A program made the position numbers and the translations under genes. Positions 1-33,700 of a stretch of 64,000 nucleotides of DNA are shown here, piece by piece. Position 1 is the first letter of the stretch; the number at the start of each line of letters is the position of its first letter. The notes below the pieces were generated by a model that was given only the letters and a program-made list of their open reading frames with translations, made no database searches and had not been told where the DNA came from. Origin of the DNA: Vermamoeba vermiformis (lineage: Eukaryota). Where the stretch lies: the NCBI GenBank assembly GCA_045837725.1, contig JBEWZL010000008.1, positions 124,001-188,000 of the forward strand, in the 5' to 3' direction.

Positions 1-2325
1 AGACGATTCTGTTCTCGATGCAGCTTGGGAATACTTGAGCAAAGTGCCTGAAAAAGAATTGAGTGACTTTTTGACCTTTTTAATTGAGACTTGGGTCGAT
101 AGTCTCGGTACGTTTAGTGTATAATAATATATATATACCTATATGTATATTAACGATATTTATGGCACGCAGCTAGCGGACAAAAGAACACTGGCAAGAC
201 ATCCAAGTCGTCGATGATTGGTACGCAATGTGAATTCAATTAGAAATTAATATGCGAGGTGCATTATAATAGGCATAGTATTAATATGGACGTATTTGGT
301 ATTATAGGCCTCGGTATTCAAGTGTTGATGGACGTTATTTTGCGTCACAAACCTGAATTGATTGCTGGCGACAAATTCATCACTGACAAGTTCAAAAAGA
401 AATATATGCAACAGTACGTAGTCTATTAGCTCATAATAATATTTCCTCCTATTAATTTAGTGCAATCAAACCAAACGAAAAAATTAATATTTTTCAATTC
501 AAAATTCAATTGAAATTAGGCTTGTACAGTGCTCAATGCTTGATTTCACTTGATCAATGTAATCGATATTAATATTCATATATAGAGCCAATAACGTGCA
601 CTTGTTGAATGGCAAGACGTACGGCCATCAGATCTTGTACATTGCTGGTCAAACTTTGAAGTCAAATCAGCCTTATGTAGCGCTCTATTGTGAGTGAATA
701 ATATACACTGAACTATATATATACTAATACTATTTATTAGTGTGGTTCAAGCTGTTGTTGCCGACAATTTATGCCTCCAAGTCACTCGACACTCAGATCG
801 ACAAGGAAATTTTGTCCTTTGGCGAATTATTAGCTGCCATGTACGTACATAATATCGTTGTTATAATATAGCCAATAATTAATTATGGTATTAGTCCTAA
901 GGCCAAGTTCCGTTCGAGCGGATCTAGCTCCGAATATGCCTCACCGCGCGCCATTGAAATGTTGATTGAACTGCATTACAATCGCAACATTGCTTCCACG
1001 TATCCTTATTCACATTAGATATTATACTGCAACATGATTATGAATATTCATCATAATAATAACCACGCCCCTGTTATTCCTTAACATGACATTTCCAGCG
1101 ATGCCAAAGCCAAGTTAGAAGCGCTGTACAATCACGTGATTGTAAGTCAATTTGAATACAATAGCGCGCCTTATATAGGCAGCACCTAATGTTACTATAA
1201 TTAGAGCGTGGCCTTATTTGGCGATGACAAGTCCCCGCGTCGTTATTTCACCACACTGATGCGTCACGTGACTGAAGATCAGCCCATTCGTGAAGTTGTA
1301 AGTCACGCAGTCTTTGCATAAATTTCAGCAATCATTACCACGCCACGATGCCTTGCTGACACGTGTACTGTGCAGATCTCAGAGCTGTTGGTCAAGTCCA
1401 TGCTGCGTGACGGCGGCTGCAGCAAAGTGTGGCGCGAGCACTATCACGAGATGATTCCGCAATCGAACAACTTGTGCTTGTATTTCTTGGAGAACTTGGA
1501 CAAGATCAAGGGCGAGGTACGTGTCAATTCTGCGTGCTCGACGGGCACTGCTTCTGAATACATATATCGAGTATATATATACATACTCTAGTATTGTATT
1601 CTCATCGGTATTTATCGTTAGAAACGCGGTGCCAATTTGTTGCGCGAGACCTATGAGAACGTGAAACATTTCATTGAAGTCAACGAGGCCCTCAAACAAG
1701 GCACGCACACCGTTGTCAAGGACGGCAAGACTGTCAAGGTATGTACTATATTAATAGTAGCATCAAGATCAGCGGGCCAGTTTAGATCTGGGATGTGGAT
1801 CTTTTGCACGGCTAGACAAATTTTTTTCGATTTGAAATCAACAACAGGCCTTAGTTTAGTGGTAGAACGGAGGGCTGTAGTCCCTTAGACGTCGGTTCAA
1901 TTCCGGCAGGCCTGAATACCCTGGTCAATTTCTTTTTTTTGGTTTCTGTTCATTTTCCCGGATCCAGATCTTTTCGCTTTAATCGTGTCTACGAGGTACC
2001 TAACGCTGCTTTTTAGATTATTGTTGATCAAGACGAACTTGCTCGCTGCGACGCGACCTGCCACGAGTTGTCCCGTGCCCTCTACAAAGCAGGAGTGCGC
2101 AGCGGCAAGGACAAGACAGCGCGCGGAGGCTCAGGACTGTTCGTGTTCTTGTTGCTGTTGGTGCTCGTGCTCGGAGTGCTCGTCTCACTCGGCGGTGTTG
2201 GTCCTTTGGCACCTATCGCCGACAAGTACGCCGTTCAGTTGGGCATCACTCACGCACAACTGAAACCGTTGCGAGATCTCGTCGCTCGTTTGCTGGCTGC
2301 TGGCAAACCTTGGATCAAATTGTGA
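1..2325 (+). CDS. TMEM214: TMEM214-like membrane protein, multi-exon, 5' end outside window
   Basis: Spliced peptides (VWFKLLLP; KLEALYNHVI..ALFG..RRYFTTLM; CSKVWREHYHEMIPQSNNLCLYFLENL; LRETYENVKHFIEVNEAL) resemble TMEM214/DUF2359 as recalled. C-terminal hydrophobic helix (LFVFLLLLVLVLGVLV); stop at 2323-2325. Confidence 0.7.
1845..1915 (+). tRNA. trnY-GUA: tRNA-Tyr(GUA), intronless, inside intron 1739-2017 of the TMEM214-like gene
   Basis: Full cloverleaf: acceptor CAGGCCT/AGGCCTG plus discriminator A, D stem GTTT/GAAC, anticodon stem GAGGG/CCCTT with loop CTGTAGT, T arm GTCGG-TTCAATT-CCGGC. C1-G72 and A73 are Tyr identity elements; T-run terminator at ~1929-1940. Confidence 0.95.
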
Positions 2326-2388
2326 AGAAATTACGTGTGAAAAATATCAAAAACTAAAACAACAATTATTTATCAGTACAAACCTCGT

Positions 2389-3905
2389 TTATTGTTTTTG
2401 TTGAGGCACGCAGTTCTCATTGTACACGACACTCGTCATATTTACAGTGATTTCGAGTGGTTGGTCGTGCAAGTCTTTCTTAGCATCGCTCTCACTGGGC
2501 AGAATGGGCGCGAGAGTGAGTGGTTTGACATCAGGCTGGACCCACGAGCTCAGTGCTGTCGGCGTGAAGATGACTGCAGGTGTGTAGTACTCGAGGTGCA
2601 GTCGTCCGTTAGTGAGTTGCGGATGTCGTGCGACAAAGTGTTCGAAAGATTCAGCTTGTGATTTGTTCTCGTTCAAACACTCGCGGATGATGGTCACCCA
2701 GAATATCGTCATTGTTAAATGGAACGGTTTGGTATTGCTCACTGCTGCGTTGTAAGTACGAATACCTATCATATGAACATTAACATAATTCTCTAATGCA
2801 TAATTCAGCCGTACCATTGATAATTTTCTGTTGCGCGAGGACCGGATCTTGGAACAACGTCAAATACAGCCACGCTACTCGTAAGTGATTCTTATGCCTC
2901 CATTGTGGAATAGGCTACAGGGATGTTATATAAATGTATTTGGTATCATATCACATGTGCTGCACGTACCAGCATAGTGTCTTCAAATGCCTTCAAGAAC
3001 ACGACGTCATCTTTCAACTCTTCGTCTGACGGTAATTTAACGAGGTCTTTGCTCTTATCTCCATCAGTCTTATTGTTCGTAGTATTATTATTAGTGCTAG
3101 TCTTGTTCTTAAAGAACGGATTTAATCGGTTCAACAAGTTCCAGCGGGATGTGCCTTGATTACTCTCCTGCTTCAACGTTTGTCCTAGCCAGTCCAATCC
3201 TTCATATAATCCATCGCCAGATGTTGCAGAGCTGGGTTGAATAAACCACTTCCGTCCATCTAATTAATGTAATTAGCATATTTTCCGTTAAGGCAGTTTT
3301 TTCGTACTTAACACTTGATCCAGGCCTAAAACTGTTGTAATCTCCTCAATGGTCATAACGTTGGGCAAATCCATCTTATTGGCGAATATTAAGAACGGAA
3401 TTCCCTTTAAATCCTCCTCTGCAGATAATTAGAGAAAAGTTAGATGTGGTAATGTACTTGCCTTCAACTAGCTTTTTCATTTCGTAGTCGATAGTATCAA
3501 ATTTCTCCTTAGCAGAAGCATCAATCACGAATACAACGGCTGAAGTATTTTGGAAGTAATGGCGCCATAACGGTCGAATCTGGTTGGAAAATTAAAATTC
3601 AATTCCGAATTATTATTCATTTCAAATAATTTAGGCCACAATTATTTTGAACAAATTATTAATACCTTATCTTGACCACCCACATCGAATACAGTGAATG
3701 ATGTTGTTTGATAGTGTACGGTCTCTACACAGAATCCAATCACGGGCACATTTTCGGTGATGTCGCCCAATTTTAATTTGTACAATATCGTGGTCTATTA
3801 ATTATTAGCACGGAATAATATAATTATTGCTTCTAGTACCTTTCCTGCTCCATCCAGACCAACCATCAAGACTCGATCTTCTCTCTTTTTGAACGCGTTA
3901 CCCAT
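2389..3905 (-). CDS. Arf-family small GTPase fused to a C-terminal uncharacterised domain (multi-exon)
   Basis: MGNAF N-terminus (myristoylation type), [45 protein letters not shown]. Frame continues through exons encoding [14 protein letters not shown]...FHLTMTIFW...EYYT...WVQPD to the stop at 2389. Confidence 0.85.
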
Positions 3906-4534
3906 TGCGTGTTGTTTTTGCTTTATTGACTAGTACGCTATGTAGATTGCTCGTGCCAAGTGTTTTGTTTTAACTTTAATTTTCATTGAAACAAAGACGT
4001 CAGCAACTTTTTTTTTTAGCTTTATTTGGACTTGGTTCTCATTTTATTACTCAATGAATATAATAAATATAAAAAGGAGAAGTATTCAATGTGATGTCAA
4101 TAGGCAAAGTAATAAATTAACGCAATGAGAGAACAGCAGGCCCCGTGGTTTACCTTTCTTCCTTATTCAGAGCAAGCGAGTACACATGATTCAGCTTCAT
4201 AATGTATACTCGCTCGAAGAACACATCAAAGACATTTCACCCGAGGTGATCGTCACTGGTGTGCGTGGCAAACCAACGGGCATTGACAATCCAGCGACGT
4301 TCATTGCTGAGCCAATAGCAGGGCCCATGAGTAGTTCCCATCAGCTCGTTGAATCTGCCTCCGTGCTGGCTTTGTTGCTGGTACCTCTATTGTAATTCTA
4401 TTGCTAAAAAAGGAAATCAACAGTATTCGAATGTCGAACATTTACTGTGCTATAATATATTACTTTGTACACCTCGCACGTCCATATGAAGACTAGACTA
4501 TTAACAACAAAATCACATTCAAAATGTGCACTGC

Positions 4535-6735
4535 TTAATTCACGCGCTGTGAGTTGGCCATGAAACGATGCACGGTGAATGCAGCCACGAGACCCAACAC
4601 AGCCACTGCACCGACCAACATGCTCTTGCCTGGGCACGAACACAATTAGTACTATGTTAATCGAACACCTTCTATTTGAGTACTCACCAGTGGAAACAGG
4701 CTCGTCATTGTATTCAACTTCTTCGGGCTCATCGCTCTTCTGTGACTTGACTGACTTGCTGCTGGACTTCAACTACGATAATAATATCATTATTAACATA
4801 CTTACACGAAAGAAAATTAGCACTCTATTTGACTTACGCTCTTGCCTTTCTTGGCTTTGGGGTCCTTTGTCGCGCCAGACTTTCCTTTTTTGGTATCTGC
4901 CTTGCTCTCTTCAGCGGCACGAGCAGCACGGGAGTGTTGTTTGTCTTGTTCGGCAATCAATCGCTCCATCACGTCTTCAGCAGGCACGTCATTTCTGAGT
5001 GCAGGATTGAGTTTGACAGCTGCTCTAAAGTGATCACGTGCTCGTCGCAAGTCTATGTCACGACCATCGATCTTCTCGCCCTTGAGCATCAACATGCCGA
5101 GCTGTATCAATGGTAATTAGTCTCAGCGAATCACAATGCATCCCACTCCGTACCTGCACGTGAGCTTCAGCACAGTTGCGGTCAGCTGCTTTCTTCCACC
5201 AGCGAATGGCGTTCTCAAAGTCACGCTTCTCTTTCACGTACAAGTTGCCTATTTTGTACAATCCAAATGGCTCGCCTTTGCTAGCTGCCTCGTTGTACCA
5301 TCGCTCTGATTCTTCGATATTTTTAGCTACGGTGCCCAGACCTACGGAATAAATATCGCCCAACTTGAGCATCGACCACTTGGAGTTGTGTTGTTCAATG
5401 GCCATTCTGCAAAGATGCAAATTAGAATCGGGTAAATTCAATGAACTTCAAGGCCAGTGCGTATAATACGTACTTCAAATATTTAACTGATGCGTCAGCG
5501 TCGGGTGTGACAACAGGCGGTTCATTTTGTCCAAAAATGTCAAGGCCTAAATATATTACAGCTAGTCGTTTTTGTGCCTACAGCAAGAGCGTTAGATCGG
5601 ATCCACACAACTTTAAAAATCATCATTAGAAGTACCTCTAATAGACCCGTGTTAGCGGCATTAATGTAATGTTGCAAACTCTTCTCTAAATTCTGCATCA
5701 ATGAGGTTTCAAATAATTTGCCGAGCTCGTATTCAGACTTGGGATCGATGTCAGTCGGATCCACCCGACCCTCTTTGACAAGTACAGCCCAGAACTCATG
5801 CTTGACCTTCTCTAAATGTATCGTCACTGTACTTGTGGAGCTCTCTATTTGCCACAACGAATCAAATCCATTTATAACTTCATATAATTTGCCCTAATTT
5901 AGAAAAGTCAGACAAACAACATTCAAAAAAGTAAAAAACCGCACAATAGTATTAATAGTATCAATAAATAGCATATAATATCATTATAATTCGCAAATTA
6001 TCGATTTCTTGCATTAACATGATATTGCAAATAAAATTTCGTCAGTGAGCTTAACGAGTGTCAGTCAAATATTTGCTGAAAATCTTTTGGACGAGCTTAA
6101 ACTCGTATTTATGGATTTAATTTAATAAACTAATAGTATAATTATGCTATTAATTGGCGCTACTATCTTACCTCGACATTTGGTGCCTTGCCGCGAATAC
6201 CAGCTTTAATTGTTGTGTTTGTCAACTGAATATCAAGATCACGCTTCGTGGTTCCGGCTATTATATAGGAATATTAGTCATATATACGCTATAAAATTCA
6301 ATTTGACGCTAGATCGCGAAGTAACTGTTCAGTGAACAGCGAAGGACCTTTTTCCGAACAATCTTTAGAAACGAAATATGACAGTGATATTATATTAGCA
6401 TATAATTTATGCATTATTATAATCAAGATTAATTGCTAGCGTTGGCATTTTGGCGAATTGTTAAGAGATCTAGCTTTGCAACATCAATTAACTCACCGCA
6501 ATTTCAAATATTTAAAAGAAAAATATTAAATACTATCGGCGCAAATATTTAGACGCGGTTGTTACTCGAATTATTTGCCGGTTAATTTAGCCAAATTAAA
6601 ATAAAAATAAAAATTGAGATCGAGCTTACCAGGAACTTTAAATGTGACTGTAACAGAATCTAGTGTTTGAATGAACGAGTAAATGCCTTCTTGGTCCTCT
6701 TCCGGAAAATAGGCAACACCTGTTGTTGGATTCAT
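4535..6735 (-). CDS. CS (p23/NudC-like) domain + Sel1-like repeat protein with C-terminal TM anchor
   Basis: YSFIQTLDSVTVTFKVP...SLWQIE...TIHLEKV..EFWAVL (CS domain); Sel1-type repeats (LGDIYSVGLGTVAKNIEESERWYNEAA; AIRWWKKAADRN); terminal MLVGAVAVLGLVAAFTV; canonical GT-AG junctions. Confidence 0.8.
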
Positions 6736-7243
6736 GGTCTACTTCAGCTGATCTCGCAATGCAAACAAGGCAATATACAAATTAATAAGCCACAGATATA
6801 TACACCAGTAGTGGACTTATAAGCAATCAAAATAAACAGAGAACAAGCTGGGCGAATCAATGCCGCCAAAAGTGAGTTCATTATTTTTTGTCCGTCAAAC
6901 TCAATTCAAGCACAACTGTTCTATTTTTGCGACGCAAGCGATTGTTATATCAGCATAAATATCATTGTACTGACGAGGTAATCTGACTTGATGCACACGT
7001 TAATGGTTTGTTTTTTTTCCGATCTCTCGGTCTTGTTCGGTCTTTATTAATTATCAAGCAAGTAAGAATAGAATCGAATTTAGTGTTAAAAATAGCAGAT
7101 TGACAGGCACCCGTCCTTCCGCTAAATTTCTCAAAACTCAAATTTAAATATTTTTGATCGCGATCCTAACACACATTTTACGTTTTTGATCTCTAAATGG
7201 ACAACGGAGTTATAATTGACAATATTTTAAACACTATTAACAT

Positions 7244-10200
7244 ATGGAAGCGAATATCTATGATTTTGCGGAGAAGAATGGCAGGGCGCTGCTCAAGGCA
7301 AAGCTAACCAGGTCAGATTCGGCGCAGAGCCAGAAGAACAACTTTGCCTCCTACTGCTTCATATTGGACCAGTCGGGGAGCATGGCAGGAAGACCATGGG
7401 ACACTATTAAGAAGATTATGGCGCAAGTTGAAGTCAGTCCTTTCGCGCATCTGACCACAGCCATTACTTACGCCGACAACTCACTCTTGTTCGAGCCACA
7501 TCGCCTCTCTGACGTTCAAAAGCAAGGCACTCTCGGCTGCACTAGCTTCGAATCTGCGATCAGAGAAATGCAGCGCTGGATGGTGAACCAAGACCAGACC
7601 AAGCCCTTGCACTTCTTTTTCATGACTGACGGTGAGGACAACGCGAGCAGAGATCTCAAGGGCGCGCAGAACTTGCTCAAGCGAACCATTGAAGAGTTCA
7701 AGCAAGACGTCGTCATCAACGTGATTGGCTTCTCGCGGGCCCAAGTGTCATTCTTGGATGAGCTGCGTCAACTCGGCAAGACCGACGGATTTCTCCGTTA
7801 TGCACTGGAGAACGAGGCCTTGGAGACCAAGTTGAGCGAATTGTTGGACTTTATTGAAGTCTCGATGCCCGTGACTGTACACTGCTCGTGGTTGAAGGAT
7901 CCGATCGTCACTCAGGCCACCGCCAGTGCCACCGAACCAAACAGCTATTCCATCGCTGAGTGGATCGACGTCATGCCACCAAAGTTTGACGAAGATGGCG
8001 ACGAGTCTTTGAAGCCGAAAGGTAAGTCTAACAGTGTTCCCTTGCGTTACTAGTCTTTGCTAATGTCATGTATTGCAGTCACTTTACTCGCAGGCAATGA
8101 CACCGCAATTGAATTGCCAGTAAAAGTGTGTTTGCCATCGATATTCGAGTACCTCTTGGAGCTTGAGCATCGCAAGGTCGATACGCTTGAAGACGCCAAG
8201 CACGTGTGCTGCGAGCTCGGTCAATTGCGTGCCTCCTCGTTCAGATTGCGCAACATGGCCATGCGCATGGAGTTCGAGGTCGCGTGTCAGGACTTGATGG
8301 AGAGAACCAACGAGTTCATCAAACTCAGCGCTGACTCTGCGCTATCAAGTGTCGCCATTACTGCGCTGAAGAAGGACTTGCAATACGACACCAAGTTCTC
8401 CAAGATGCGTGTACAGCGCAAGATGAACGTTCGTATTGCTGAGAACGCGCAAAGATTGTCCACCTTGGACGTAGACTTGGAGAAGTGGAAGAATGATTTG
8501 CAGCCTGAAGACATGGTCGCTGTGCCGTTGGATGGTTTCAACGAGGAGATCAAGTGTGAAATTTCGTGGAACTCCTTGGAGGAGATTATGAACGATCCGA
8601 ACGACTTGATTGGATTTGGTTTGCTCGTCGCACGTGGTGAGCACTTGCTCGACGCACCCACCACCATCAAAGTCGAGTCCATCAGCACCACTCTGATGAC
8701 CCGCTTGACCTTCGAAGAGTCATGGTTGCACCACTTGAACAACGCCGCTAGTGACCCTGGAGGTGGTTTCTCAGGCGAGGCCAAGCCGATGGTTGTAGGC
8801 AAGTCCCGCGAGCCAATCAACGCTTGGTTGCCGCTCTTCGTCAATCCAGCTCACGCTCGCAAAGCTCGTATTTTGATGCCAGTCTTGTTGGGTCAGTTGG
8901 TCATGTTGAACCCGTTCGGCTTTGACAAGTGGCAGAGCCGAGTATTGTACACCATTCAGGCTTCACTCATCGCGCAGCTCGCTGACAATGATCGGTCTCG
9001 TTGGATTGCCGAACAATTCACCATGTTGTGCACTGAACTGTTGCCGGCTCTGCAGCCAGTGATTTTCAGCGGTGACAACAGCTTGCAGAAGTTCATCTCC
9101 GATCCGGCCTTGCGAAACAAGACTTCGTGGCCAAATTTGTTGACTGTTGCCGGCCTAGCCATGTGCAGCACTCCAAAGAACGAGTGGATGTCGCGTGTCG
9201 TTGGAGATTTGTACCCAATCATGTGGCAAGAAGCACTTTACCGCAATGTCCGTGAGCACTTCAAGGGACAGCCAGCACTGCTCGTTGACCTGTTGAAGAA
9301 ACTCGTCTCATTGCAGCCTGATGAAGTACGTGAGATGACGCTCAAAGGTGAGGTCAAGGACGAGGTCTGGTCCTCGTGGTTCGAAGAGGGCTGTGACGCA
9401 TTGAAGATGCCTTCATATGTTGTCGAGGTACGTTATACATTTATTTCCTATACATTTATTAATTATTAATCTCTTTTGACAGGGATCGACCTTCGTTGCT
9501 CCAATCATGCGTGAATGGAACGAAGACACTGAGAAAATGTTCAGCGCTGAAATGACTGACAGAAAGTTGAGACCGTTCTACTTGGAGAACTCGATATCTA
9601 ACATGCGTCACTTGGCACCGAACATCAAGCACAAGGCATACAGATTGCCGCGTGAGTTCCAGTGGATGACCCTCGCGCACTGTCTCTACCGCGAGATCAC
9701 TGCGTCGATGGAAATTCCAGCACCGAAGCTTGAAGTGCCTGAGAGCTGGAACGACTGTCACGCGCAGCTCTTGTCGTGGATGATTCGTCGCTTGGAGGAC
9801 AAGAACAACGACAACCAAGTCTCCATCGAACTGATCGCGAAGCGTATTCTCGCCACTGATGATCCGATTGCATTTGCAGCCAAGTTGCGCCGTTACGCCC
9901 CGTTGAGATCCGGCAAAGTCTTCGAACAGATCGAAGAATTGCTTTCAACTGCTGACAACTTGCACTCGAAGCTTGAAGTCCTGTTGACGAACACTGTCGA
10001 TGCCCCGCACTTAGAGGCCAAGAACAGACGAGCTCTCTTGCTACACACCGTGTGGACTCCACCTTTGCACGTGTTCAAGCTCGCCGTTGCCACTCTCGGC
10101 AAGGCACGTGTGAAGGAGATTGAGCGCCTGTTCATTGACCAGCACATGATGGTCGGCCATCTCTATCGTGAGAGCGACATACCCAACAGACACGGTCACT

Positions 10201-10268
10201 GCAACTCACGTCCGAACTCGTCTTTGTCGTACAGATTCACTGGCTACCCGCATCCGTACGACGCTTAG
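7244..10268 (+). CDS. large vWA-domain protein (3 exons)
   Basis: MIDAS motif FILDQSGSM, T (GCTSF) and FMTDG. Three long ORFs joined by short introns (~8022-8078, ~9428-9482); ends with HLYRESDIPNRHGHCNSRP. Confidence 0.85.
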
Positions 10269-10838
10269 AGCAAAGCAAAATCTTCTTAGAGGGCAATCAA
10301 TGTGTATGTAAGCCCTTGTATAATGAACACTTTTGTTCCGAATAAAACGAGTTTATTTCGGTCATTTTATGTACAAGAGTCAAAACAGACAATTACAATT
10401 ATTTTTATCGGCCGATCCTGCTAAGTAGTATTTACAATTTTCATAAAGGTATTAATAAACAAAAAAAGGGTATTAAGTGAGTCAGAGTGATAGAGAGAAG
10501 ACAAGCGCCCAGATCTGCGCTACCGCCACCAGCAAATTCCGAACAAAGCTGCATCCAGAATGAACTATGACACAAGAACTGACCCGGGGCGTAAATCTAC
10601 TACTAACTCTACTAAATTAAAAGAGAGACTCAGTTATCTCTACCAAGTCCTCCCGTCACACTTTCAAGTTATCAGTAAATTTACACTCGATCAGCCACAT
10701 CAAGCCACCGTCCACTCGAGACACAGCTCGTTCTTTCAAAACCGATGTGATAAAGCAAATTGATACTTACTTATACTTCTCTATCAAACTCCTTGATATA
10801 AAACTATTCACAGGTTATTAGCGGATGTAGCACGGGAG

Positions 10839-11966
10839 TTAATCGTCGTAAAGATCGTCTTGCACCTTCAAAAACTCGCTCGTAGGTGTAGCTCTGAAGA
10901 ACTTGAAGCAGCGAGAAGGTGGGTACTTGACTATGAACAAGCTGTGGTTCTCGAATTGCTTCAGATCCTTGTACTCTTTCGGCAGATTCGACAATCGATT
11001 GCCCGCAATGATGAGACCTTGCAGGGCTTGCAGCTTGTTGATTTCGCTGGGCAGTGTGCTAATCTTGTTGTTAGACACGTCCAGGAAGCGCAGAGTAGTG
11101 AGCGAGCAGATCCACTCGGGCAAGACACGCAGCTGGTTCTTGCTCAAGTTGATTCGCTCAACTCGATCTAGATGCGACAGAGACTTGGGCAGCTCGCGCA
11201 ATTCGTTGCCTTGTAAGAAAAGTTCGCTGAGGCTGTTGAAGATGTTGCCAAAGTTCGTTGGAAGCAAAGCCAATTTGTTCGCATCGAGCTCGAGCTTTTT
11301 CAGACTTGCAAACGCGGCGTATCTTGAACCACTTTCAACTGCTGAGCCGATTGACGCGTCGATATCGAGCTCTTCGATGCCATTCTGCGATAAAGCAAGC
11401 TCTTGCACTCGAGGAAGCAGCTTGGTAACAGATGGAAAAGCAGTGAATCTGTTGTTCTTGAGGTTGAGTTTCAGTAGGTTCGACATGTCCTTCATGCCAT
11501 TCGGTAGCATAGACAGGAGGTTGCCGCTGAGGTCCAACTCTTCTAACTGGTTCAGACGTCCGATTTGTTCGGGCAAAGTAGCAATCTGATTGTTGGCCAG
11601 ATTAAGCTTCTTGAGATGCGAAAGGTTCTCTACAAACGCGGGCAACTCCGTCAGCTTGTTGCCGCTCAGATCCAGTTCGACGACTTGCGAGAAATGTTGC
11701 AAAGCCAAAGGAACTTCAGTCCATCCCATGTTCGCCAGATTCAGCGAGATTTTGCGGGAAGCAGCGAGAGGAATCAAATCTTCTAAGCCATGAATATTTT
11801 GAGTGCTATCGGCAGCACTTTCTACAACGTTCAACGGATATGAGTAAGCCCGTCGACGATGATCAATTGAAGCCCCCCTCACTGGGGGCAAGGGTATATG
11901 CGGGATTTCGCCTTCTTCGTTATTATCCATCATCAGTATAGAGACAAATACTGTCGTATTGAGCAT
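10839..11966 (-). CDS. leucine-rich repeat protein
   Basis: 375-aa ORF with about 11 LxxLxLxxNxLxxLP repeats; true start may be the MMDNN ATG near 11933. Confidence 0.9.
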   Translation of the reverse strand: MLNTTVFVSILMMDNNEEGEIPHIPLPPVRGASIDHRRRAYSYPLNVVESAADSTQNIHGLEDLIPLAASRKISLNLANMGWTEVPLALQHFSQVVELDLSGNKLTELPAFVENLSHLKKLNLANNQIATLPEQIGRLNQLEELDLSGNLLSMLPNGMKDMSNLLKLNLKNNRFTAFPSVTKLLPRVQELALSQNGIEELDIDASIGSAVESGSRYAAFASLKKLELDANKLALLPTNFGNIFNSLSELFLQGNELRELPKSLSHLDRVERINLSKNQLRVLPEWICSLTTLRFLDVSNNKISTLPSEINKLQALQGLIIAGNRLSNLPKEYKDLKQFENHSLFIVKYPPSRCFKFFRATPTSEFLKVQDDLYDD

Positions 11967-13031
11967 TGGCTAGATAGAATTCGTTAGATTGAGGGAAAAC
12001 TGAATCAAAACTAGAAAGTCTAAAAATTGAGTAAAACTTGGCAAACCGAAATCATAATAATTAATATGTTATTTGACCTCGATAGTAGTGTTAAATTTAA
12101 CTCTAACCAACTTCTCGCATTTAGATTAACTTTTCCGACAAAGCTTGCCCGAACCGTCGTTTATTTTTAAAAACATGAAAAAATAATTCTAATATTATTA
12201 AATAATATGATGTGTTCATAAGATTGCATCGGGCAAGGTTACAATCGTTCTTGAAATTGAAATCGAGCGGACTTACCTAAAAAATTGAGCAAGGATTTCA
12301 CCATTTACGTCCAAAAAACTCAGAACCCCCCCTTCAATGGTAGTAAGTTGAGCTTGTGGCCGTTGACTTGTTGCAATCAAAGGATTTATGATAGGAATAA
12401 AAGCAAAGCAAAAACGAAAAAATTTTTTATGCGGCTCCACGTGGCCCTACAAAATCACAAGTAACCGCTTTCAATGAACATTTAGATTCTGCTTAGCACA
12501 CTTAACACCACCAAGCCTTAAAGGGTCGTACCGCGGTAACATGCACATCTAGCGAGTACCATTAGATCCAGTTTAAAATCACGAGATCTCGCACAAATCT
12601 TCGCGTGTTTCTCCAATAGCAGCGTGAGCGCAGGTAAAATTAGTCCGTCTCATGATCGAAGGAATTTCGGTGGGTAAGTCGCAAGTTGCTTAACCAAAGC
12701 CAGACTCACCATTGAGATGAACTCATAATAACCGTTATTCTGATCTCAGCAGCAAAATTACTAAAAAAATGCAGCGACATATATTGTGCAAGCAGAGCCT
12801 TCGGTGCTTCTTTATGCATCGTAAAATTATGCGCCGTGCCGAAGTTTATTTTAATTTTACCGTTGCAGAGCGTTATTATTTTTTGACCGAGGCAGGTCTG
12901 AAGTAGCAGCTGCGCTTAGAGCTAGGCACGCAACGGGCAGAAAAGATGTTGGATAAGAGCCGGCATATCATAAATAAGACTTATTCTTTACAGGAGGTCA
13001 CTAATGTGCACATGAAAACGAATATCAATTA

Positions 13032-15966
13032 TTACAAATCATCGTAGCTGCCAGTGCCAGTCGATGTGGCTGTCTGCGAGTAAAATTGTCGCAAAGCTTC
13101 ATCACGTGGCAGTCCTCTGAATTTGGGTCGACCATCAGCCTCGTGCTCGCCGTAATATTGCATAATCTCTTGGAACTCGAAGCGCGAGTGTAAAAAGTCC
13201 GGCAATGATTTCTTCGGGCCCATAATATCGTCGTCTTTAATCAAATAATTTCTGACTGCCTTTTGACCGACTAATTGTTGCGGATCCATTCCAGGCATTG
13301 GCGGGATCTGACGCGATTAGTGGATGAACACAACGACAGTAACTTAAGAGCAAACTTACTCTATAGCCTACTGTTAGCGAGCCAGGACTTGATTCACTGA
13401 ATCGCAGTAAAAACGAGCCAGGATTGCAGTTAATAAGTGTTCGTTGGACCAGATCTCGGTGCAAAAATCCGTAGATGAATCTAAATGCCACAATGAGTAC
13501 AAGTATTGATGGTAATAATAATAACTACATACCCCATCTTCCACATGGTGCACAAGTTCTTTTGATATCGCAATTCGCGCAACACTTTGCCGAACCAGTC
13601 CCAGAATCGTTCAGCGTTCTTTTGATTGACAGACGTCGCGCTGCCAAAGAAGTTTTGATGAATATAATGCAAGTCCAGCAGTGACAAGCCGCGTGTAGGT
13701 CTCGTTTGATCTTGTTTCGTTGCTTGAATAAAATATCTTTGTACTTCATTGGCGAAGTAATTCCACGTTATCTCGCCCTACATCTCGTTATGAGCACGTG
13801 TTTACATTACGCGTAAGAATCAGGTACTTACAACATTAGCAAACACGTCCTTCACGAACATAATCTTCAATGCATCACCGTATTGTGACTCGTTAGTCAT
13901 CACGAGCAATGGCTTCGAGAATTCACTTTCAAGTGTCACGGGGCCAGCACCGTAGTCGACTTGAACGCCAAAGCGCAGATTGGCAATGTCTTTGCGCGTG
14001 CCCTAATAAGTGTTAGTTAATGACATTTCACCGGATCCAAAACAAAAAGTCACCGGTCAATAATGTTGACTAGGCAAAGACTAGAGAAAGAAAGTATAGA
14101 ATATACTGGTAAAAAGCAAAAAAAGATAAGAGCACAACACCTCCGATTCCCAGGTAGTCTCCTACCCCAGTACTAAGAAGGCCTGAACAAGCTTAACTAT
14201 CGCTGATCGGACGGGAAGCGGTGCATTCTTGTTAGTGTGGTCGTGCCCGAGACGCCTCGCGACATCGTGTTCGGGTCACTACTTTCTGCGACCAAAAAAG
14301 ATCGTGCAACGCGCTTCCTGTCCGGTCGACATAACTAGAAAAACTGATCACTTACTGATTGGAAAGTGAATTGGAACTTGGCAGTTTGTGACATCAAGTC
14401 AATGGACGACGAGTCTGTGTCCAACACGGGCTTGGGTTTCTTAGTCTAGGTGAAAAGAGGTGTTAAATCGATGCACGCACGTGATTATTATGCATCAGAA
14501 GGTACCTTAGAGTTGTACGGATTGTGACAGACGATTGCAGCTTTAACTTGTGACAAGACCTTGGTCTCGATATTTGATGCCTTCAATATTTTAACGTGCA
14601 CAATCTCTTGTTCGATGAGCTGTTTCTTTTTCATGAAAATTGACGGGAAGGGTTGATTGATAATGTACAGGGAGGCGAGACTAGTGCAATGTTAAGAATA
14701 TTCATTTTAGAGTAGAAATACTTACGGCAATGATTGTGGTTGTCCAGTAAGTGTTTCGCGTTCTCGAATGAACAGATCTAGTTGTGCCTCTTGAAAAGCG
14801 AGGTCATTTGTAAGCAGCGTAATCTTGTGCAAGTCATGAGGACTCAACAAATATGTGTCGCGTAGTTTTTTACTGAAGTGGCTCGTGTTAGCGAAATGAA
14901 GGCGTCAACATATTATTACGAGCACTTACAGCTCTTGGACGTAAGCCACATTAGCCTGTTTCATTTTAGTTTGTTCGGCGTACAGTTGGTTGAACGCTTC
15001 TTGCGATGGTTTTTGCATTAATGCTTTTTGGAACGTCCTGAGAGGCGATTAGTCGATATCAAAGTGTCATTTAGTTGAGTTGTAGTACCTCATCTTTTCG
15101 ATTTGTTCTGCGTGACCGACAAGAGCTTTCTCGATCTCTAGTACCTCAGGCAAGTAGTGCAAGGGAAGCACTGCAATGGGTTGTGGTTGTTGCTGCACAG
15201 CTTTGATCGTCTGCTTGCCATTAGCGGCTTTAGTCGAGGTATCCTCGAAGTTGAACAAACTCGGGCCGACGTTAGGCTTGAGCACTTGTTGCGCTAAGAT
15301 CGGAGTTTGGGGTTGAGGAGAGCTCTGTTGCGGGTACACGAATGGCGAGGTGGGTGTTGTGGGCTGTGGCTGTTGGTACAGATTCGTGTTCGCGGGTTGA
15401 TTGATGTGCGCTGTTGGCTGCGAGTGTAAGAACTGTACGCCCGTATTAAAGCCCTGGGTATTTTGCATGCCGGGTGGGAAGTATGAGAAAGGCACTGAGC
15501 TGTCCGTGATCGGATTGGCAGGCACATCCAACAGAAAATCTTCGTCGTACTCGGGTAATGGCATATCGCTAAATAAAATTATTAATAATTAAGCAATAAT
15601 TAGATGATAATGAAGTCCTTATTGAATTGATTTAAAGGCGTATTAGCGAACCTGAAAAAATGAGAAATTTCGATCAGAAAGAAGCAAGCGAGATTTTAGC
15701 CTTTAAAAATAAAATATTGAATTACGTTCGCATAAATATATTAGAATAGGAAATATTAGACGATCACTAGTAATTACACAAAAAAGACTGAATTTTGAAT
15801 TGTTTAATTTCGTAGTCAATCAAGCGAGCAGCTAGCAGTTGATTTTAGCATTATTTGTATTACAATATTTGTTCATATTTTGAAAATAATTAACGGTTTT
15901 ACGAGTGAGCACTTACCCTGTTCCAATTGAATCTACAAAACTATGTATATCAAAATCTCCAGACAT
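13032..15966 (-). CDS. STAT: STAT transcription factor, Dictyostelium-type (Q/P-rich N-terminus, coiled coil, DNA-binding domain, SH2, C-terminal Tyr)
   Basis: LYIINQPFPSIF; FQSGTRKDIANLRF; ESEFSKPLLVMTNESQY; FWDWFGKVLRELRYQKNLCTMWKMG; SH2 FIYGFL..PGSFLLRFSESSPG; terminal GSYDDL*. Confidence 0.92.
14128..14248 (-). rRNA. 5S rRNA gene (copy 1, 121 nt) in STAT intron 14003-14355
   Basis: Reverse complement reads GGGCACGACCACAC...CCCGTCCGATCAGCGATAGTTAAGC...TTAGTACTGGGGTAGGAGACTACCTGGGAATCGGAGGTGTTGTGCTCTT followed by T-runs; typical eukaryotic 5S motifs and terminal helix. Confidence 0.96.
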
Positions 15967-17906: not shown

Positions 17907-18103
17907 CCCCCGCTTGTTGTACTTGCACTATCGTGCGCGATTTGTATAGATGTATCAATACTAATAAATTAATTACCATAAAAGTCCTCGTGCTTTGATC
18001 CAGATAATTCGCATAAATTCAACGAACAAGTTGTTGGTCACCAACAATAAAAGGTCAATATTCAATCAATGAAAAGATAACGAGACAATAGGAAAAGTCA
18101 ACG

Positions 18104-18807
18104 ATGGCAAACGGCGAGGTCTATGTTTGGGAAGGAAATCAGATCGAAGAAGGAATCTGGTTAGGGAGCGAAGAATCAGCACATTGTGAGCTTTCAGAAT
18201 TACAAGCGAAAAATATAACACATGTATTAACGGTTGGTTTGGGCATTCCGATGCCTCACACTGGCGTAAGTAAATCCGTTACGAATATTATTTTTTGAAA
18301 ATCACGACTAATTATTATAAACAGAAATTACAATACCTGCACATCAAAGCAATTGATCTGCCTCTATATAATATTGTTCAACATTTTTCTGCGTGCTATG
18401 AATTTATCGAAGCAGCCCGTGCATCTGGCGGTTCAGTCTTGATTCATTGGTAAGTTGGGATCTCACAATACAACAATAATAAACATTTATCAACGGTGCT
18501 AATGCAATATTTCCAGTGCTCGCGGCAAATCTCGCAGTGCATCGGTCGTTATGGCCTACTTGATGAAAAAGCATAAAATTTCATTTGCTGAGGCGAAACA
18601 TCGCGTCAGGTGAGTCTAAGCATAATATATTTGCACTTGTAATGATATATTAACACGATTTGGTACTCCAGATCTGCTCGTCCTATAATTGATGTGAACG
18701 AAGGATTTCATGCTCAACTCACTTTGTACGAACGAATGGGCTGCGACACCAACGGCGATACCAAATTTCACGAAGAATATCGAACGACGTACAAAATCAA
18801 GAAATAG
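18104..18807 (+). CDS. atypical dual-specificity protein phosphatase (4 exons)
   Basis: IEEGIWLGSEESA; ITHVLTV; IKAIDLP; spliced catalytic loop VLIHCARGKSRSASVVMAYLM; RPIIDVNEGF. Confidence 0.92.
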
Positions 18808-18949
18808 TGTTAGCTCTATTATTCAAAATCATGTACAAAGTAAATATTTTTGGCAAAACCAACGCAAAACCGGAGAAGAAGAACAGTTATAATGCTCGAA
18901 ACTAACATTCGATGCTCCATATATTAAAAGATTATACATTCACTGAGTT

Positions 18950-20015
18950 TTACAGGGCTGCGACTTCTTTTTCTTTTTGAGTTCCTTATCATTGTTTTCG
19001 TTAATGTTTTCAACGTCACTCTGCATCTATTATATTATCAATCAATACAATGGCTTGATAAATGGCAATATTGTTGGTATTACCGAGAACAAATTTAGCA
19101 TTTGCGGCCAAACTTTATCCAGTCCCTGAACATCTTCTCCATCTACTTCGATATACGTGATGCCCATCATTTGACAAAAGTACTATAATACGATTAATAT
19201 GCAACGTGGTTGACAAAAGAGGTATTAAATATGCAGGAGAGGGTACGAACCTGAGCTTGAAATTTTTGAACAGCCCGGTCTTTGTCAGCAAATACGTATC
19301 CAATGAGTACATAATGACGAGGGTATTCGTTGACAGCGCGTTTTTCTGTTATAATGTAATCGATCCATGTAAACACGTTCCAAAAGGAGTTGACATCCGA
19401 CGTGTCATAGACGAGCAAGTATCCTGCAACAGACCTCATAATGCTCATTGTTGAAAAATAGCCAAACTTCAGAGTGATAGGTACGTTCTACAATAGGCAT
19501 TATAATAAGGATTGAGGATTAAGGTAGCTATCGATTCTTACAACTTGGATTTGATTGCCGTTCTCGTTGTACGGGACCCAAGCAGAATCTAGGTATTGAT
19601 AGCGAGTGCGTAATAAATTCAACAAGTGCTCGGATACAACGAGGGCTAATAATCTTAATGATTTGTGACTGGGGCTGATAAAGTCTTTCGTCAGTTCAGG
19701 ATCAAACCCGGCAACGCCTTTGTGCTCGTACAATTTGAGCATTCCCGGCAAATCTAAGTAAAATGAGTACCGTGATATTCGAAAATAAGGGTAATTGTAG
19801 TTACCTTTGATATGAGATTCAATTTCGGTCTGAAATAGGGCAATGTGTTTACGAAACAAGTCGCCAACATTAGATCTGAAGAAGTTGTTGATAAATTGCA
19901 GCTGTAATAGATCTTCAATAGAACAATATTCAATAATGAGGTGCCAGAGCTCTAGGGGAAGTTCGCTGGTGCTTTGATCTTGAAATTTTGATTGAATATC
20001 CTTGTTCCTCTCCAT
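18950..20015 (-). CDS. F-box protein with a degenerate Rab/Ras-like C-terminal region
   Basis: ELPLELWHLIIEYCSIEDLLQLQFINNFF (F-box). Later exons VAGYLLVYDTSDVNSFWNVFTWIDYI, YVLIG, ITYIEV resemble the small-GTPase core; no P-loop seen. Confidence 0.7.
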
Positions 20016-24690: not shown

Positions 24691-24807
24691 TGTGGTCTTC
24701 TTCGTTAATTAGTGTCACAATTTCAATTGAACAACGGGACACAAACTCGGTAAGTTGCTCGCAATTGCGTGCATTTAATAAAGTAATTAACATCGGAATT
24801 ATTAGCG

Positions 24808-27890: not shown

Positions 27891-28180
27891 CTTTGTATCA
27901 TACGTCACATTGCCAGCATTTATTGTGCAATTCGAAGAAAATCACGTGGTCCCGAGTTGCGGCAGCTCTAATTCGCTTTTGTCTTTTATTAGTTTAACTC
28001 AGTTCGGAGATGAACTAATATTAATATACGATGTATCCTGGCCTCACTTTTGAAAACGCTGGTGCCGATCCAGGGGGGCAATTAAATTGGATATTTAATC
28101 AAAAAAAAAATAATTAGAAGGGTACACGAAAGAAAAAAGACTATTTACATTTATTATTTACAATCAGTAATATATTAAAA

Positions 28181-28564: not shown

Positions 28565-28941
28565 TGTAGTAATATAGAATAATGATAAGGCAGATATTTA
28601 TATAGTGCCACATCGAAAAAGTAAAAACGAAAAAACGAAAAAACAGGACGAGTTGCAGGGCCACAATTTTTTTGCCTTTATTTCGCAATCGAAGTTAGAA
28701 ACCTTGCTAAAACCAGCAACGGTTTTGAAGGTTCAAGCAATAAAGTCAGCAGATTCGGGCGAAAGGACCAGTTCTGTAACCTCGAGTAAGTACGGATGTT
28801 TTTTTTTTTTTTGATCACAAAAAATTGCAGTTCTAGAGCCAGAAAAAACGGAAGTTTTGTTCAACCGGAGCAAAATTTGCATCCATTCATATATATTATA
28901 ATAATTATTATATTATATTATTAATGGCATATTTATTCAGT

Positions 28942-30440
28942 TTATTTTTCTGTCTTCGTAGCTAAGTTATTGTTGATGACTTGCGACTCAAAATTAGATC
29001 TGCCAGCGGTGAATGTTTTTCTTCGCATTTTGCATCTGTAACGCACTTCATTGACATCTTCAAAACGAATATAGACGCCTTCTTGCGTCTCTTTGCCGTA
29101 ACTCGACGGCTGATCCACTAACTTTTTCAACTCGGCTCCTAACTTCGATTGTTGCATATCCTTAGACTAACAATAGAAATACTATTAATATACATTAATA
29201 GTAAGAATTATTATCGTTAAAGTAGCCTTTCGAAAAATATCTGTGAAAAATTTGATTCACGTGAAAAAATCAAAGATATTTTTAAGGGTTGTGAACGTAC
29301 CGTGAATCGTTTGACCAGCGGAACAACTGTGAATTTTCCGTCGATTAATTTGACTAATTGATCGTACGGCACAAATTTGTTGGTTGTTTTGTCCAAAATG
29401 TCAAACACGATGAAAAAGTCTGGTAACGCGTCATAACCAACACTGTGTTTGCACCACAGCCATTCTCCGAATAGGCAGTACCTTCATATAAACAATTAAT
29501 ACGAGAATTGTAAAGGGGTTGAACGGTGTGACCAGATCCGGCTGTAAAAATTTAACAGCTTGATCCAAAATTGCAAATACGTACTTATTTGTTAAGATAT
29601 TCCATAATACTTCCATATGTTGATAAATATAGTCTCTGTATACGTTATATTGAGGTTTCTCTCCGTTACCAACAATTCCTAAGACGAGATCTTCGATTAG
29701 AATTGTACTTTTTAAAAAGGACTTTTACTGACCAGACCGTTTTTGAATAATAGGCTGCCATTCTTCCTTGAAATGTACTGACACATTGGCTCCTATAAAA
29801 TCGATTATTTTAGCGAAGTGCAGCGGAATTGAATCACGCGTCTCAAAAATTGAGAAAAAAAATGTAAAATAAATTTGTAATATTGTATTATTGTTAGCCC
29901 GATTCAAATCCCCCCCCTGTGCATTTTAGGAATTTTAATTCGAATTTTTAAAAAAGTTGAGGAATTTATTTTGGCGCTCAGTCGACACCCAGCCGCCTGG
30001 TTCTTAGCGGCAGCGATAGCATATATATCCAACTATATTATTGTTGGTATGTCGCTGTTATGGTTGGTCTGGGGTAACGACTACCACGCCCAGAAAACTG
30101 ATAATTATAATTTTTAAATTCGTAATTCACACAAGGGGGGGATTTGAATCGGGCCAACAATAATGTGTAATTGAGTTCTAGTATCTTAAATGGTTAAAAT
30201 TGCAGGAGAATAATTTTAAAATTTAATTAACAAATTTTGGGTCTTTAACGGTTGTAAATCTGGATCTGTCCTGTATTATCACGTACCATCGACTTTTTCT
30301 TGCACAATAACATTAGTAATATTATATGACTTGATCATGGAGTTCATTTGCTCTTCGGTAATAACTTCATCGTCATCCACGACTTCAGATCCAGCCATGT
30401 GCGGTGTGCGAGGAAACTTGAAAAACGGTTGTTCTTCCAT
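28942..30440 (-). CDS. RNA ligase-type covalent nucleotidyltransferase (multi-exon)
   Basis: FKFPRTPH; motif I QEKVDG/ANVS split by intron 29793-30286; LFGEW; HSVGYDALPDFFIVFD; QEGVYIR; RCKMRRKTF. Confidence 0.88.
29887..30164 (-). repeat. 35-bp inverted repeat enclosing a GC-rich nested hairpin, within the RNA ligase intron
   Basis: 29887-29921 ATTATTGTTAGCCCGATTCAAATCCCCCCCCTGTG versus the reverse complement of 30130-30164: 33/35 identical. Inner stems at 29973-30090. Confidence 0.92.
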
Positions 30441-30740
30441 TATTAGAATTTAATATGTGGTGATTGTTCTATTGTACAATTTTGATAATTTAATAATATC
30501 GTTTCAACGAACAAATTGATTTTTGTTTTATCAGTCACGTGCTCGATCTGCTTTAATTCGCAGTTCGGTTCGTGCAATGTTACTAGCCTAAAAAATACGA
30601 ATACGTGTTGTATTTATTACATTCTATAGCAATTACATTAATTTGAGATCTGCTGTGGACAGATCCAGCCCCAACAAAATGCGTTATTTAAATACAAGTC
30701 TTATTTAACAATAGTAAATCATTTATTTTAGATTGTTTTA

Positions 30741-33700
30741 CTACGAATTAAATCGCACTTTATCGAGCCACTGATTGAAGTACTCGACGTTAATATTCTT
30801 CGGCAACACTTCCAAGCTCGTGACAGCTGTCAATGGCTTATCAATCTGTTCTAAATATAGACTCATTTCACGCTCAAAGTCATCGTTAATTTCTTCGTCT
30901 TTTCGTGAAAATTCTAACGCTTTGTTGACCGCGTTAAAAATATCCGTTGAAACAGTCTCTGGTAGACTTTGCTGCAGTTCTTTTAAGCACGTGATTACTA
31001 TATTTAGTATATCGACCAATTTTTGCACTTCGAGAGGCTGATTATTGCTATTTTTGGCATTTTTCATTTTTTCTTTTGCCTTGATCCGCTTGACTTGGCT
31101 GACAATATAACCCTGGCACTGTGCCAGCAATGCATTATTTCTGCAAATATTTGCTGATGAATTGTTCCGCAGGTCAGTCCATAGTTCGTGTTCGTAAACC
31201 ACTGAGATTTTTCCGTCGGTTTGTTCTTTGAATAAATTTTCGATTAAAACGCTCAGATCCAGTCTGGTCACGTGATCCAAAAACTTCCTTATTTCTATAA
31301 TAGTATATTTCACTGAATTTTGAGGCTCGATCTCGACTTGTTGTGAAATTTCAGGTTTGTTCTGATTGGTCGTCAATAACTCTCGTTCTTTCAATTTAAA
31401 TTTGTTGATTTCTTTTCCTTTTTTAGACTGGACTGGGCCCTTTTGCGTCTTATTTTCATTTGCAGGCGCTGAACTGATCAAATCGATCTCGGTCCATGGA
31501 TTAGTTCCCGCATTGGGTCTGATCAGTGACTTGACTAACAATTCAATATTCGCTGCATAGACTCCAAAGTACTTGTTCTCAACACTGCAAATTAATCGTT
31601 ATTATTATGTAAATTAATAATGAAATAATTTTTCGTTCGATGAAATTTCGGATGTGGATCGGATCTGACTTACTGATTGAACGTTAGGAATAATAACCGG
31701 CCTTTAATAAGGTCATCCATATTAATGTTATCGAATAGCTCTTTGTTCTTGATAAATCTAGCTTCATATTTGCTCGAGTAAGGTGCAAGCAGATCTGCTC
31801 ATAAAAATTAATTAACGCCCGAACTTAACCTTAATAATAGTAGAACTTACTATTATCCTCGTATGTTTGCCTTAAATGGAAATACCAATCTTTGCACATA
31901 TCTAATCGTTTTTGCGTATCCAGATCTTCGTCTTGAAACGTTTCCAAAGCCTTTTCGACAATTTCGACTTGTTCAGTGAATTGTTTGTTCAATTCTTCGT
32001 GCGTGAATTGACAGCCACGAACTTTCAATAAAAATTCGCGGTCTTTTGAGCCATTAGGCAGCCATACTTCGATGTTTCTAGTCGTCGCGGCTGTTTGAGT
32101 TTAATTTAAGAAATTTCCTTATTTGGAAATAATGGTGTAGTACCTTGTTTTGCATGCACGAGACAGCGGAATAATATGTACCATTTTTTCATTAATTTCT
32201 TTTCCAATTCTTCGATAGAATCTTCTTCGTTTTGGAACTCATCCACATGTTTCTTAAAAAAGGAAATAAAATCAGTATTTAGGAGATAGTTTATATAATA
32301 ATATACTCACACTATCAGTGTCGACTATCATCGCGTCGCGTTTTCTTTTCTCCTTTAACTGACTGATTTTTTCGTGCATTTTGAGCACCATCCTTTGACC
32401 TATTAAAATCAATCAGGACCGTAGTCAATAACAACAATATAAGCACGAATATGTTACCCTTGTTGCCCATGACTTCGATCATATACTTATTGATCGCTTG
32501 CTTCGTCAGAAACACGTTTCTGAAATTGTTTTTGAGCTCGATCCACAACGGATCTTCGTAGTGCACGTGTTCAGTGGCTTGGAATAGCGACTCAATCGAC
32601 TTAGTATCGCCTTCGAGCACTATTTGTAGGAAGTATTCGATGCCCTGCAATAGTATTGCTCCGTTAGTATGACAAATTTCATTGCAAAAATTTCTTGCAG
32701 ATCCGGACTTCTAATAATAATAGAGGGATATGAAAGTATAGAATAGAGTGGCAAAAAGCAAAAAAGATAAGAGCACAACACCTCCGATTCCCAGGTAGTC
32801 TCCTACCCCAGTACTAAGAAGGCCTGAACAAGCTTAACTTCGCTGATCGGACGGGAAGCGGTGCATTCTTGTTAGTGTGGTCGTGCCCGAGACGCCTTGC
32901 AACTCAGAGTTCGGGTCACTACTTGCTACGACCAAAAAACATTCGTGCAACCCCTTCGTCTGATCAGCAAATATTCAAGCATTCAATTTTGTTTTGGATC
33001 CACGTGTCATCGTCAAATTTCGTAAGCACCCAACGGTAAGGCAATAATATATATAATACATACGTAAATAGTATAGTCAGGTCTGATTCCATCGGGATTT
33101 TTTATGCTCTGTGCAAACGGTGAAAATCCAACGAGTTTTTTGACCGGCGATAAAATGACAATGAACATGTCTTGGTCACTGCCCTAAGTGATCATATTAG
33201 TATTATTTAATTATAATATGATATATTACGTACTTGCACGTTCAAATTATACCGTTTAGAGCCCAAATAAGTCGCCATCAAAACTTTGCCTAAATTCGTT
33301 TCAATGTGTTTCAACAACATGGCCCATAACTCCGCTGAACTCATTTGTTCTTCAACTTCATCGTCTAATATAAAAAATGTCTTGTCTTGTTTCAACCTAC
33401 GCAATAAATTAAATAAATAAAATTGAATTAAAAAATTAAGACAAATTTTTTTCGCCGTGGTGGAATTGATAATTCAACAATAAATTTAGTATTATAAGTT
33501 GTTATATGATAGTATTATAATAATTTTATACGTACTTTTCAAGTTCTAATCGTTTCTTAGTATCTTCCTCGTGTTTTTTATCAAATTCTTGATCGATCAG
33601 TGCACACAGTTCTTTACCGACTTGAGCGGAAATTTCCTGGCAATTTCGACTCAAATTGACCGGTGAATTGTTCGTTAATTCGTTCATCAAATGCTTTGTT

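Follow-up and report, generated by a model that had tools for sequence, protein, structure and literature searches.

Families of dispersed 5S ribosomal RNA (5S rRNA) genes are present in filamentous fungi, fission yeast and Acanthamoeba, where they were described as intergenic, and a linked arrangement of transfer RNA (tRNA) and 5S genes is represented by the tRNA-5S fusions of Yarrowia. In Drosophila melanogaster, 46% of the cytosolic tRNA genes lay inside the introns of genes that encode proteins according to the passage on this fly in PMC9249942, which was silent on orientation. An intron-derived tRNA-like RNA, that of GUT15, was described for Arabidopsis in PMC6152437. The genes treated here are those of RNA polymerase III (Pol III) in a stretch of 64,000 nucleotides (nt) from Vermamoeba vermiformis (contig JBEWZL010000008.1, positions 124,001 to 188,000 of the forward strand; called the window), namely one tRNA-Tyr gene and two 5S genes, together with 5S genes on contigs from a relative. 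The reading favoured here, with a rough probability of 0.6, is that 5S genes, often accompanied by tRNA genes, are dispersed mostly in introns of unrelated single-copy housekeeping genes, always in host-sense orientation, as self-contained Pol III units.

This arrangement is like that of the animal intron-hosted tRNA genes in that autonomous Pol III genes would be nested in introns of protein genes, and unlike the Drosophila case in that mainly 5S genes are carried, that all of them are sense in orientation and that one intron could hold several Pol III genes. It shares with the dispersed 5S genes of fungi and Acanthamoeba the tens of single scattered copies with unique flanks, neither in tandem nor linked to ribosomal DNA, whereas the copies here are mainly intronic instead of intergenic. 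As in Yarrowia, a tRNA gene could lie directly upstream of a 5S gene on the same strand (contigs L003, L011 and L016 of the relative), yet the two were about 240-280 nt apart with motif repeats between them, and look like separate units. Intronic small nucleolar RNAs (snoRNAs) and the GUT15 RNA are likewise small structured RNAs in sense orientation within a host intron; they come from a transcript of RNA polymerase II (Pol II) and lack a separate promoter, whereas the 5S units here carry a motif and a terminator. A search of openly licensed full texts gave no paper that places 5S genes inside spliceosomal introns, the single apparent match proving unrelated, and a 5S family that is mainly intronic in strict host co-orientation seems undescribed so far.

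Three Pol III genes were recognisable in the 64 kb by ARAGORN and Rfam, and no further one appeared at gathering scores or in a permissive Rfam scan (E<=1). The match of the tRNA-Tyr gene to RF00005 covered model positions 1-71 of 71 and exceeded the gathering score of 29 bits, and A-box-like and B-box-like stretches were judged by reading only. Both 5S genes, called copy A and copy B, spanned model positions 1-120 of 120 of RF00001 and exceeded its gathering score of 38 bits. Copy A contained an extra base at 14199, which was absent in 51/51 and 25/25 RNA reads and missing from 25,099 of 25,752 DNA depth; this copy seems to be a variant confined to one locus, and nothing indicated that it is expressed.

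For identification of the hosts, one exon per host gene was searched against a large protein collection, and one long protein was obtained for each. P0001 was a STAT protein of 627 residues with the families STATa_Ig, Dict-STAT-coil and EF-hand_12, P0002 belonged to the TMEM214 family (610 residues) and P0003 was a YTH protein (735 residues), with 82-98% identity to the window hosts. In tblastn, all three proteins ran ungapped across the Pol III-bearing intervals: residues 357 and 358 of P0001 fell at 14356 and 14002, P0002 was aligned up to 1738-1747 and picked up again at 2017, and residues 201 and 202 of P0003 fell at 33064 and 32644. Each interval had GT..AG ends and a branch site of the CTAAC type, and joining the exons across the intervals left the reading frame open. 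The longest source contigs of P0001, P0002 and P0003 had 2605, 2067 and 2712 nt, while the matching regions spanned 2947, 2318 and 3266 nt of the genome, the 2318 nt covering just 422 of the 610 residues of P0002. The source contigs were thus too short for unspliced genes, and spliced transcripts of a close strain or species must be where the proteins originated. Judged from these alignments, the three Pol III-bearing intervals are spliceosomal introns of protein-coding genes.

The strand of the Pol III gene was the strand of the host gene in all three cases. An earlier note on this stretch had claimed that every Pol III gene of the window is hosted in an intron in host-sense orientation and that none is intergenic; both statements held, as the three GT..AG intervals were skipped exactly by P0001-P0003 and the two programs gave only these three genes. 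The intervals it had given for the two 5S introns (14003-14355 and 32645-33063) were right, and the tRNA intron ends at 2016 and not at 2017. Within the spans of the three mapped hosts, the share of introns is already 33-45%, so three of three being intronic would be an event of about 1 in 20, and three of three being sense one of 1 in 8. The window count alone is for this reason weak evidence; the earlier note had called an orientation bias with n=3 only suggestive.

Further evidence was obtained from a metagenome collection, which was searched for a word of 35 nt taken from the 5S gene and gave 32 contigs (136.6 kb), cited below by L numbers; the same word had no match in the genome-contig or viral-contig collections. 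The 5S genes of these contigs were 97.5-100% identical to the window 5S. None of the 32 contigs overlapped the window or encoded STAT, YTH or TMEM214; they derive from a related organism or organisms. After removal of exact duplicates (L006 of L004, L005 of L013), 30 unique contigs were left, with 40 unique flanks (24 downstream and 16 upstream). In an unbiased first pass, the nearest coding segment of each flank was located with a codon log-odds score trained on long open reading frames (ORFs), and it lay on the 5S strand for most flanks. In a second pass the boundaries were read and the flanking ORFs were submitted to Pfam and to a PDB sequence search. A strict regular-expression intron finder was rejected because it missed known introns, and so was an automatic pairing of donors and acceptors, which recovered the three window introns and was too weak on the contigs of the relative.

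In the final tally, 33 of the 40 flanks were sense, 4 antisense and 3 unclear in orientation (binomial about 1e-6, with the two flanks of a locus not independent of each other). Unclear cases were L012 and, in L023, the short flank upstream. In 21 of the 30 unique contigs a sense exon broke off at a splice-like boundary on the side of the 5S gene, 18 of these contigs being backed by a Pfam or PDB match, and no antisense intronic 5S copy was seen among the 30. In seven contigs the sense ORF of the upstream flank stopped in the middle of a domain at a GTAAGT-type donor, and in 12 the sense ORF of the downstream flank started in the middle of a protein. L022 was represented on both sides by the two parts of a split NUDIX_2 domain, by which its 5S gene is proven to be intronic. 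L004, L018 and L021 had an intronic-sense look by reading, without a family match.

The 5S copies look like autonomous Pol III units, each with its own promoter-like motif and a T-run terminator, as judged from their sequence. A 16-nt motif, AAGTAGTGACCCGAAC, had two matches in the window, both upstream of the 5S genes, and the core of the motif was kept at about -37 to -21 in the 5S copies of the relative, with T-runs past every copy. When the two 5S introns of the window were aligned, the similarity was confined to the part between about -70 and +40 of the gene, and both ends of the introns were unrelated. Donors were located 75-783 nt upstream of the 5S genes and acceptors about 73-165 nt downstream; given the differing intron ends, with donors from -75 to -783, the introns that house the units are unrelated. 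In DNA contigs that represent other copies, the agreement with copy A ended near -36 or -1 on one side and near +17 to +19 on the other, and the repeated unit would therefore consist of motif, gene and terminator.

In the relative, the motif belonged to a stretch of some 54 nt that occurred in one to four tandem repeats, and the window copies carried a single motif. Such repeats were located at about -60 to -250 from the 5S gene in L003, L009, L011, L021, L022, L027 and others. Downstream of the 5S genes, no 6-mer enrichment survived multiple testing. The word RGATCY, often GGATCC or AGATCC, was present at +40 to +120 in 9 of 20 5S flanks (a post hoc choice, with a background of 0.0015 per nt) and at 1960, 14033 and 32996 of the window; it might be an extra B-box-like site.

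Reads were mapped on positions 1-20000 of the window, where the RNA data were complementary DNA made from a diverged strain's total or poly(A) RNA: a likeness of only 95-99% was seen for 1274 of 1365 and for 1503 of 1577 mapped RNA reads, and the depth over the hosts was low. Two introns of the TMEM214-family gene near the one that hosts the tRNA gene were confirmed (413>586 and 1514>1620, both GT..AG) by two RNA runs and one contig set. The joints 1738>2017 and 14356>14002 were not among the 15 of 61 joints listed, so the read evidence for the two hosting introns is indirect; a contig of run X5, presumably RNA, had a colinear piece ending at 1736 and a further 278 letters unplaced. DNA depth reached about 25,750 over the 5S gene, compared with roughly 650-1,200 for bins of single-copy sequence, which suggests roughly 25-30 dispersed 5S copies, although the depth ratio comes with the warning of the tool that it is not a copy number. 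At 14127-14198, long T runs on the + strand came after fragments of 5S in a few RNA reads; such oligo(A)-tailed pieces of 5S may be decay intermediates.

Four tRNA genes were predicted by ARAGORN in the 32 contigs of the relative, each located 5' of a 5S gene, on the same strand and in the same intron. In L011 a histidine-phosphatase gene held tRNA-Gln, tRNA-Ile and 5S within one intron of about 1 kb, and the pair of tRNA-Ile and 5S occurred in different hosts, the M24 peptidase gene of L016 and the histidine-phosphatase gene of L011. The tRNA part of the intronic-sense pattern comprises five genes in all, window and relative together.

According to the favoured reading, Pol III would make the 5S RNA itself from a unit composed of the motif, the 5S gene proper, in which the internal control region lies, and the T-run terminator, while Pol II would pass co-directionally through this unit and the spliceosome would take it out. 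The cassettes may be duplicated into new introns over time, and we infer that this duplication is ongoing because the hosts differ between the two organisms. Selection would then retain only the co-oriented copies, as an inverted copy would set the polymerases head-on against each other, let the abundant 5S RNA or tRNA pair with the pre-mRNA of the host and give the host transcript A-rich runs. By lying within a transcribed gene, the Pol III unit may also stay in open chromatin. In a further-reading version, the cassettes, of 5S alone or of tRNA-Gln/tRNA-Ile with 5S, would be cargo of an intron-seeking or intron-making duplication and their expression would be tied to the passage of Pol II through the host. 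This is unlikely; if true, the 5S and tRNA supply would be wired to the transcription of scattered housekeeping genes, and part of the 5S or tRNA pool could even come from spliced introns.

The same orientation would be obligatory if 5S and tRNA were cut from the host pre-mRNA or the excised intron in the manner of snoRNAs. Such Pol II-dependent biogenesis would agree with all intronic cases being sense (three in the window and 21 contigs of the relative) and with RNA reads that extend from the 5S gene into both flanks, and RNase P and RNase Z could in principle free a tRNA from any precursor. A motif at a fixed upstream distance and a 3' T-run on every 5S gene are, however, needless for intron processing, copies of the same anatomy are intergenic (L001, L025, L002/L015), and we know of no pathway that trims the 5' end of 5S out of a longer Pol II transcript. 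Members of the snoRNA-like class have no promoter or terminator of their own and are solely sense-intronic, and the 5S units were different in both respects. This explanation is quite improbable. Release from excised introns, which the earlier note had raised, likewise became unlikely with the finding of an upstream motif and T-run terminator on every 5S copy. The same note had proposed introns as the default site of Pol III genes: 21 of 30 contigs agree with it and the intergenic L001, L002/L015 and L025 do not, while the host-sense bias it had suspected was supported by the flank tally and the lack of an antisense intronic copy in the 30 contigs of the relative. Its reason, a compact genome, did not fit the window, in which several stretches of 1-3 kb were without coding signal and the RNA-contig depth over 16-20 kb was near zero.

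Sense orientation would also be forced if a mobile, introner-like cassette brought its own splice signals and created an intron within an exon. The strictness of the orientation fits with this, and so do the different host genes of the two organisms (no STAT, YTH or TMEM214 in 32 contigs), the multi-gene cassettes recurring in different hosts (tRNA-Ile and 5S, L016 and L011), the fairly narrow range in which the acceptors lie past the 5S end (about +73 to +165) and the first 70-100 nt of the downstream flank, common to L012/L030 and to L017/L031. Introners are, however, marked by homology of the whole intron including its ends and by target-site duplication. Here the intron ends were non-homologous, the window pair aligned from about -70 to +40 only, donor distances ranged from -75 to -783, the exon end was by reading not repeated at the intron 3' end in the three window introns, and intergenic copies exist, so an introner-like origin is doubtful. 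As for chance, introns are a large part of the non-coding DNA, and three intronic genes would then be nothing special, for which the 33-45% share of introns and the odds of 1 in 20 and 1 in 8 given above could be cited. With 33 sense versus 4 antisense flanks in the sample of the relative, and 21 of 30 contigs intronic and none antisense, it is highly improbable that chance and space account for the pattern.

Several points weigh against the reading of intron-hosted, autonomous and always co-oriented units. In L025 the 5S gene preceded by 119 nt the start codon of a reading frame that opens like a signal peptide, the 5S gene of L001 was located between two tandem sense genes, and those of L002 and L015 faced the 3' end of a convergent gene and were intergenic. 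An antisense response-regulator ORF was found about 700 nt off in L024, and the upstream flank common to L021 and L030 faced a divergent gene. Poly(A)-type RNA reads linked the 5S gene to its upstream flank (19 reads; loose end 14250), and 26 such reads linked it to sequence past the terminator (loose end 14120), so Pol II transcripts do carry 5S copies. The contigs L021/L030 and L002/L015 shared the upstream flank within each pair and differed downstream; they were probably mis-joined across the 5S repeat, and flanks were judged singly because such mis-joins are likely. Flank labels were made partly by eye and mostly sense ORFs were sent to Pfam, so the Pfam matches show intron residence and not orientation, and the orientation claim rests on the codon-score tally and the boundaries. 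The relative is another organism than that of the window, whose own genome contributes three genes, and the selective reasons for retention of only co-oriented copies are an inference.

If the favoured reading holds, the genome would offer a natural system with some 25-30 independent overlaps of Pol II and Pol III units. It would allow the study of Pol II passage over stable TFIIIA/B/C complexes, of selection against the head-on layout and of the spread of a 5S family. In annotation, gene callers that mask rRNA and tRNA or bar long introns will break such host genes.

Table 1. Positions of the Pol III genes, their signals, host introns and exons in the window, and of the coding segments and tRNA genes beside 5S genes in contigs of the relative
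Feature	Location	Strand	Evidence or extent
tRNA-Tyr, anticodon GTA, 71 nt	1845-1915	+	ARAGORN; Rfam RF00005, 65.7 bits
T8 run, Pol III terminator-like, 18 nt past tRNA-Tyr	1933-1940	+	Sequence reading
5S rRNA copy A	14129-14248	-	Rfam RF00001, 99.9 bits
5S rRNA copy B, common sequence	32770-32888	-	Rfam RF00001, 104.7 bits
Conserved upstream motif AAGTAGTGACCCGAAC, -36 to -21 of copy A	14269-14284	-	Motif search
AAGTAGTGACCCGAAC motif, -36 to -21 of copy B	32909-32924	-	Motif search
T7 and T5 runs 3' of copy A, terminator-like	14111-14124	-	Sequence reading
T6 and T5 runs 3' of copy B, terminator-like	32753-32765	-	Sequence reading
TMEM214-family exon 5' of tRNA intron	1622-1738	+	Open frame; P0002 coverage; codon score 15.6
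TMEM214-family intron, hosts tRNA-Tyr	1739-2016	+	GT..AG; CTAAC branch-like site; phase 0
Last TMEM214-family exon	2017-2325	+	P0002 residues 510-610, 88% identity
STAT exon 5' of 5S intron	14356-14445	-	P0001 coverage
Intron of Dictyostelium-type STAT gene, hosts 5S copy A	14003-14355	-	GT..AG; P0001
STAT exon 3' of 5S intron	13832-14002	-	Pfam STATa_Ig 87-122 of 122; P0001 coverage
YTH-gene exon 5' of 5S copy B intron	33064-33183	-	P0003 coverage
Intron of YTH-domain gene, hosts 5S copy B	32645-33063	-	GT..AG; ACTAAC branch site; P0003
YTH-gene exon 3' of 5S copy B intron	32453-32644	-	P0003, 90% identity
UCH	L003, upstream		103-223/254
His_Phos_1	L011, upstream		44-106/194
Thymidylate synthase	L014, upstream		25-167/266
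Peptidase M24	L016, upstream		44-94/208
NUDIX_2	L022, upstream		124-147/188
DUF4704	L027, upstream		5-87/486
ACOX C-alpha1	L032, upstream		5-55/169
Tuberin	L007, downstream		247-328/347
HOOK	L009, downstream		89-205/514
Exportin-4	L013, downstream		Residues 854-934 of 1113
Acyl-CoA dehydrogenase middle domain	L017, downstream		40-97/97
W2	L019, downstream		
Patatin	L020, downstream		23-76/191
NUDIX_2	L022, downstream		144-188/188
DUF829	L023, downstream		177-242/242
Human CTF18	L026, downstream		Residues 251-298 of 975
FAD_binding_5	L028, downstream		103-127/170
ADH_Fe_C	L029, downstream		Weak, E 0.0035
VID27	L030, downstream		258-301/356
tRNA-Gln with 5S	L003, 7998-8431	Same strand	Spacing about 240-280 nt
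tRNA-Gln and tRNA-Ile with 5S	L011, 322-1134	Same strand	Spacing about 240-280 nt
tRNA-Ile with 5S	L016, 13-461	Same strand	Spacing about 240-280 nt

The tRNA-Tyr genes of eukaryotes usually carry a tRNA intron. In Drosophila this was the case for 10 of 10 tRNA-Tyr-GTA genes in the passage of PMC9249942. The tRNA-Tyr(GTA) gene of the window was without a tRNA intron. In its host intron, a 14-nt word at 1996-2009 with the branch-site consensus, 3' of the tRNA gene, was common to L018 (863-876), where it lay 3' of a 5S gene; this may be a coincidence on that consensus.

The STAT host showed the Dictyostelium-type set of Dict-STAT-coil, STATa_Ig and EF-hand_12 linker by Pfam, and an SH2 domain by reading only; this domain set makes an amoebozoan lineage probable, and a protein atlas assigned no taxon to the gene. 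The YTH gene ran on into a nucleotidyltransferase-like region (30282-30449 / 32450-33400), and a ligase-like KxDG motif was noticed in the gene next to it, both by reading only; exons of the two genes had no Pfam match at these nucleotidyltransferase-like and ligase-like stretches. Other long introns, 11970-12276 (307 nt) and 5893-6170 (278 nt), were backed by reads or contigs, with neither an Rfam match nor the 5S motif inside. Long C-rich tracts were located at 45100-46600 of the window, where the GC content was 0.59 and the GC skew -0.44, and the + strand carried a proline-rich ORF.

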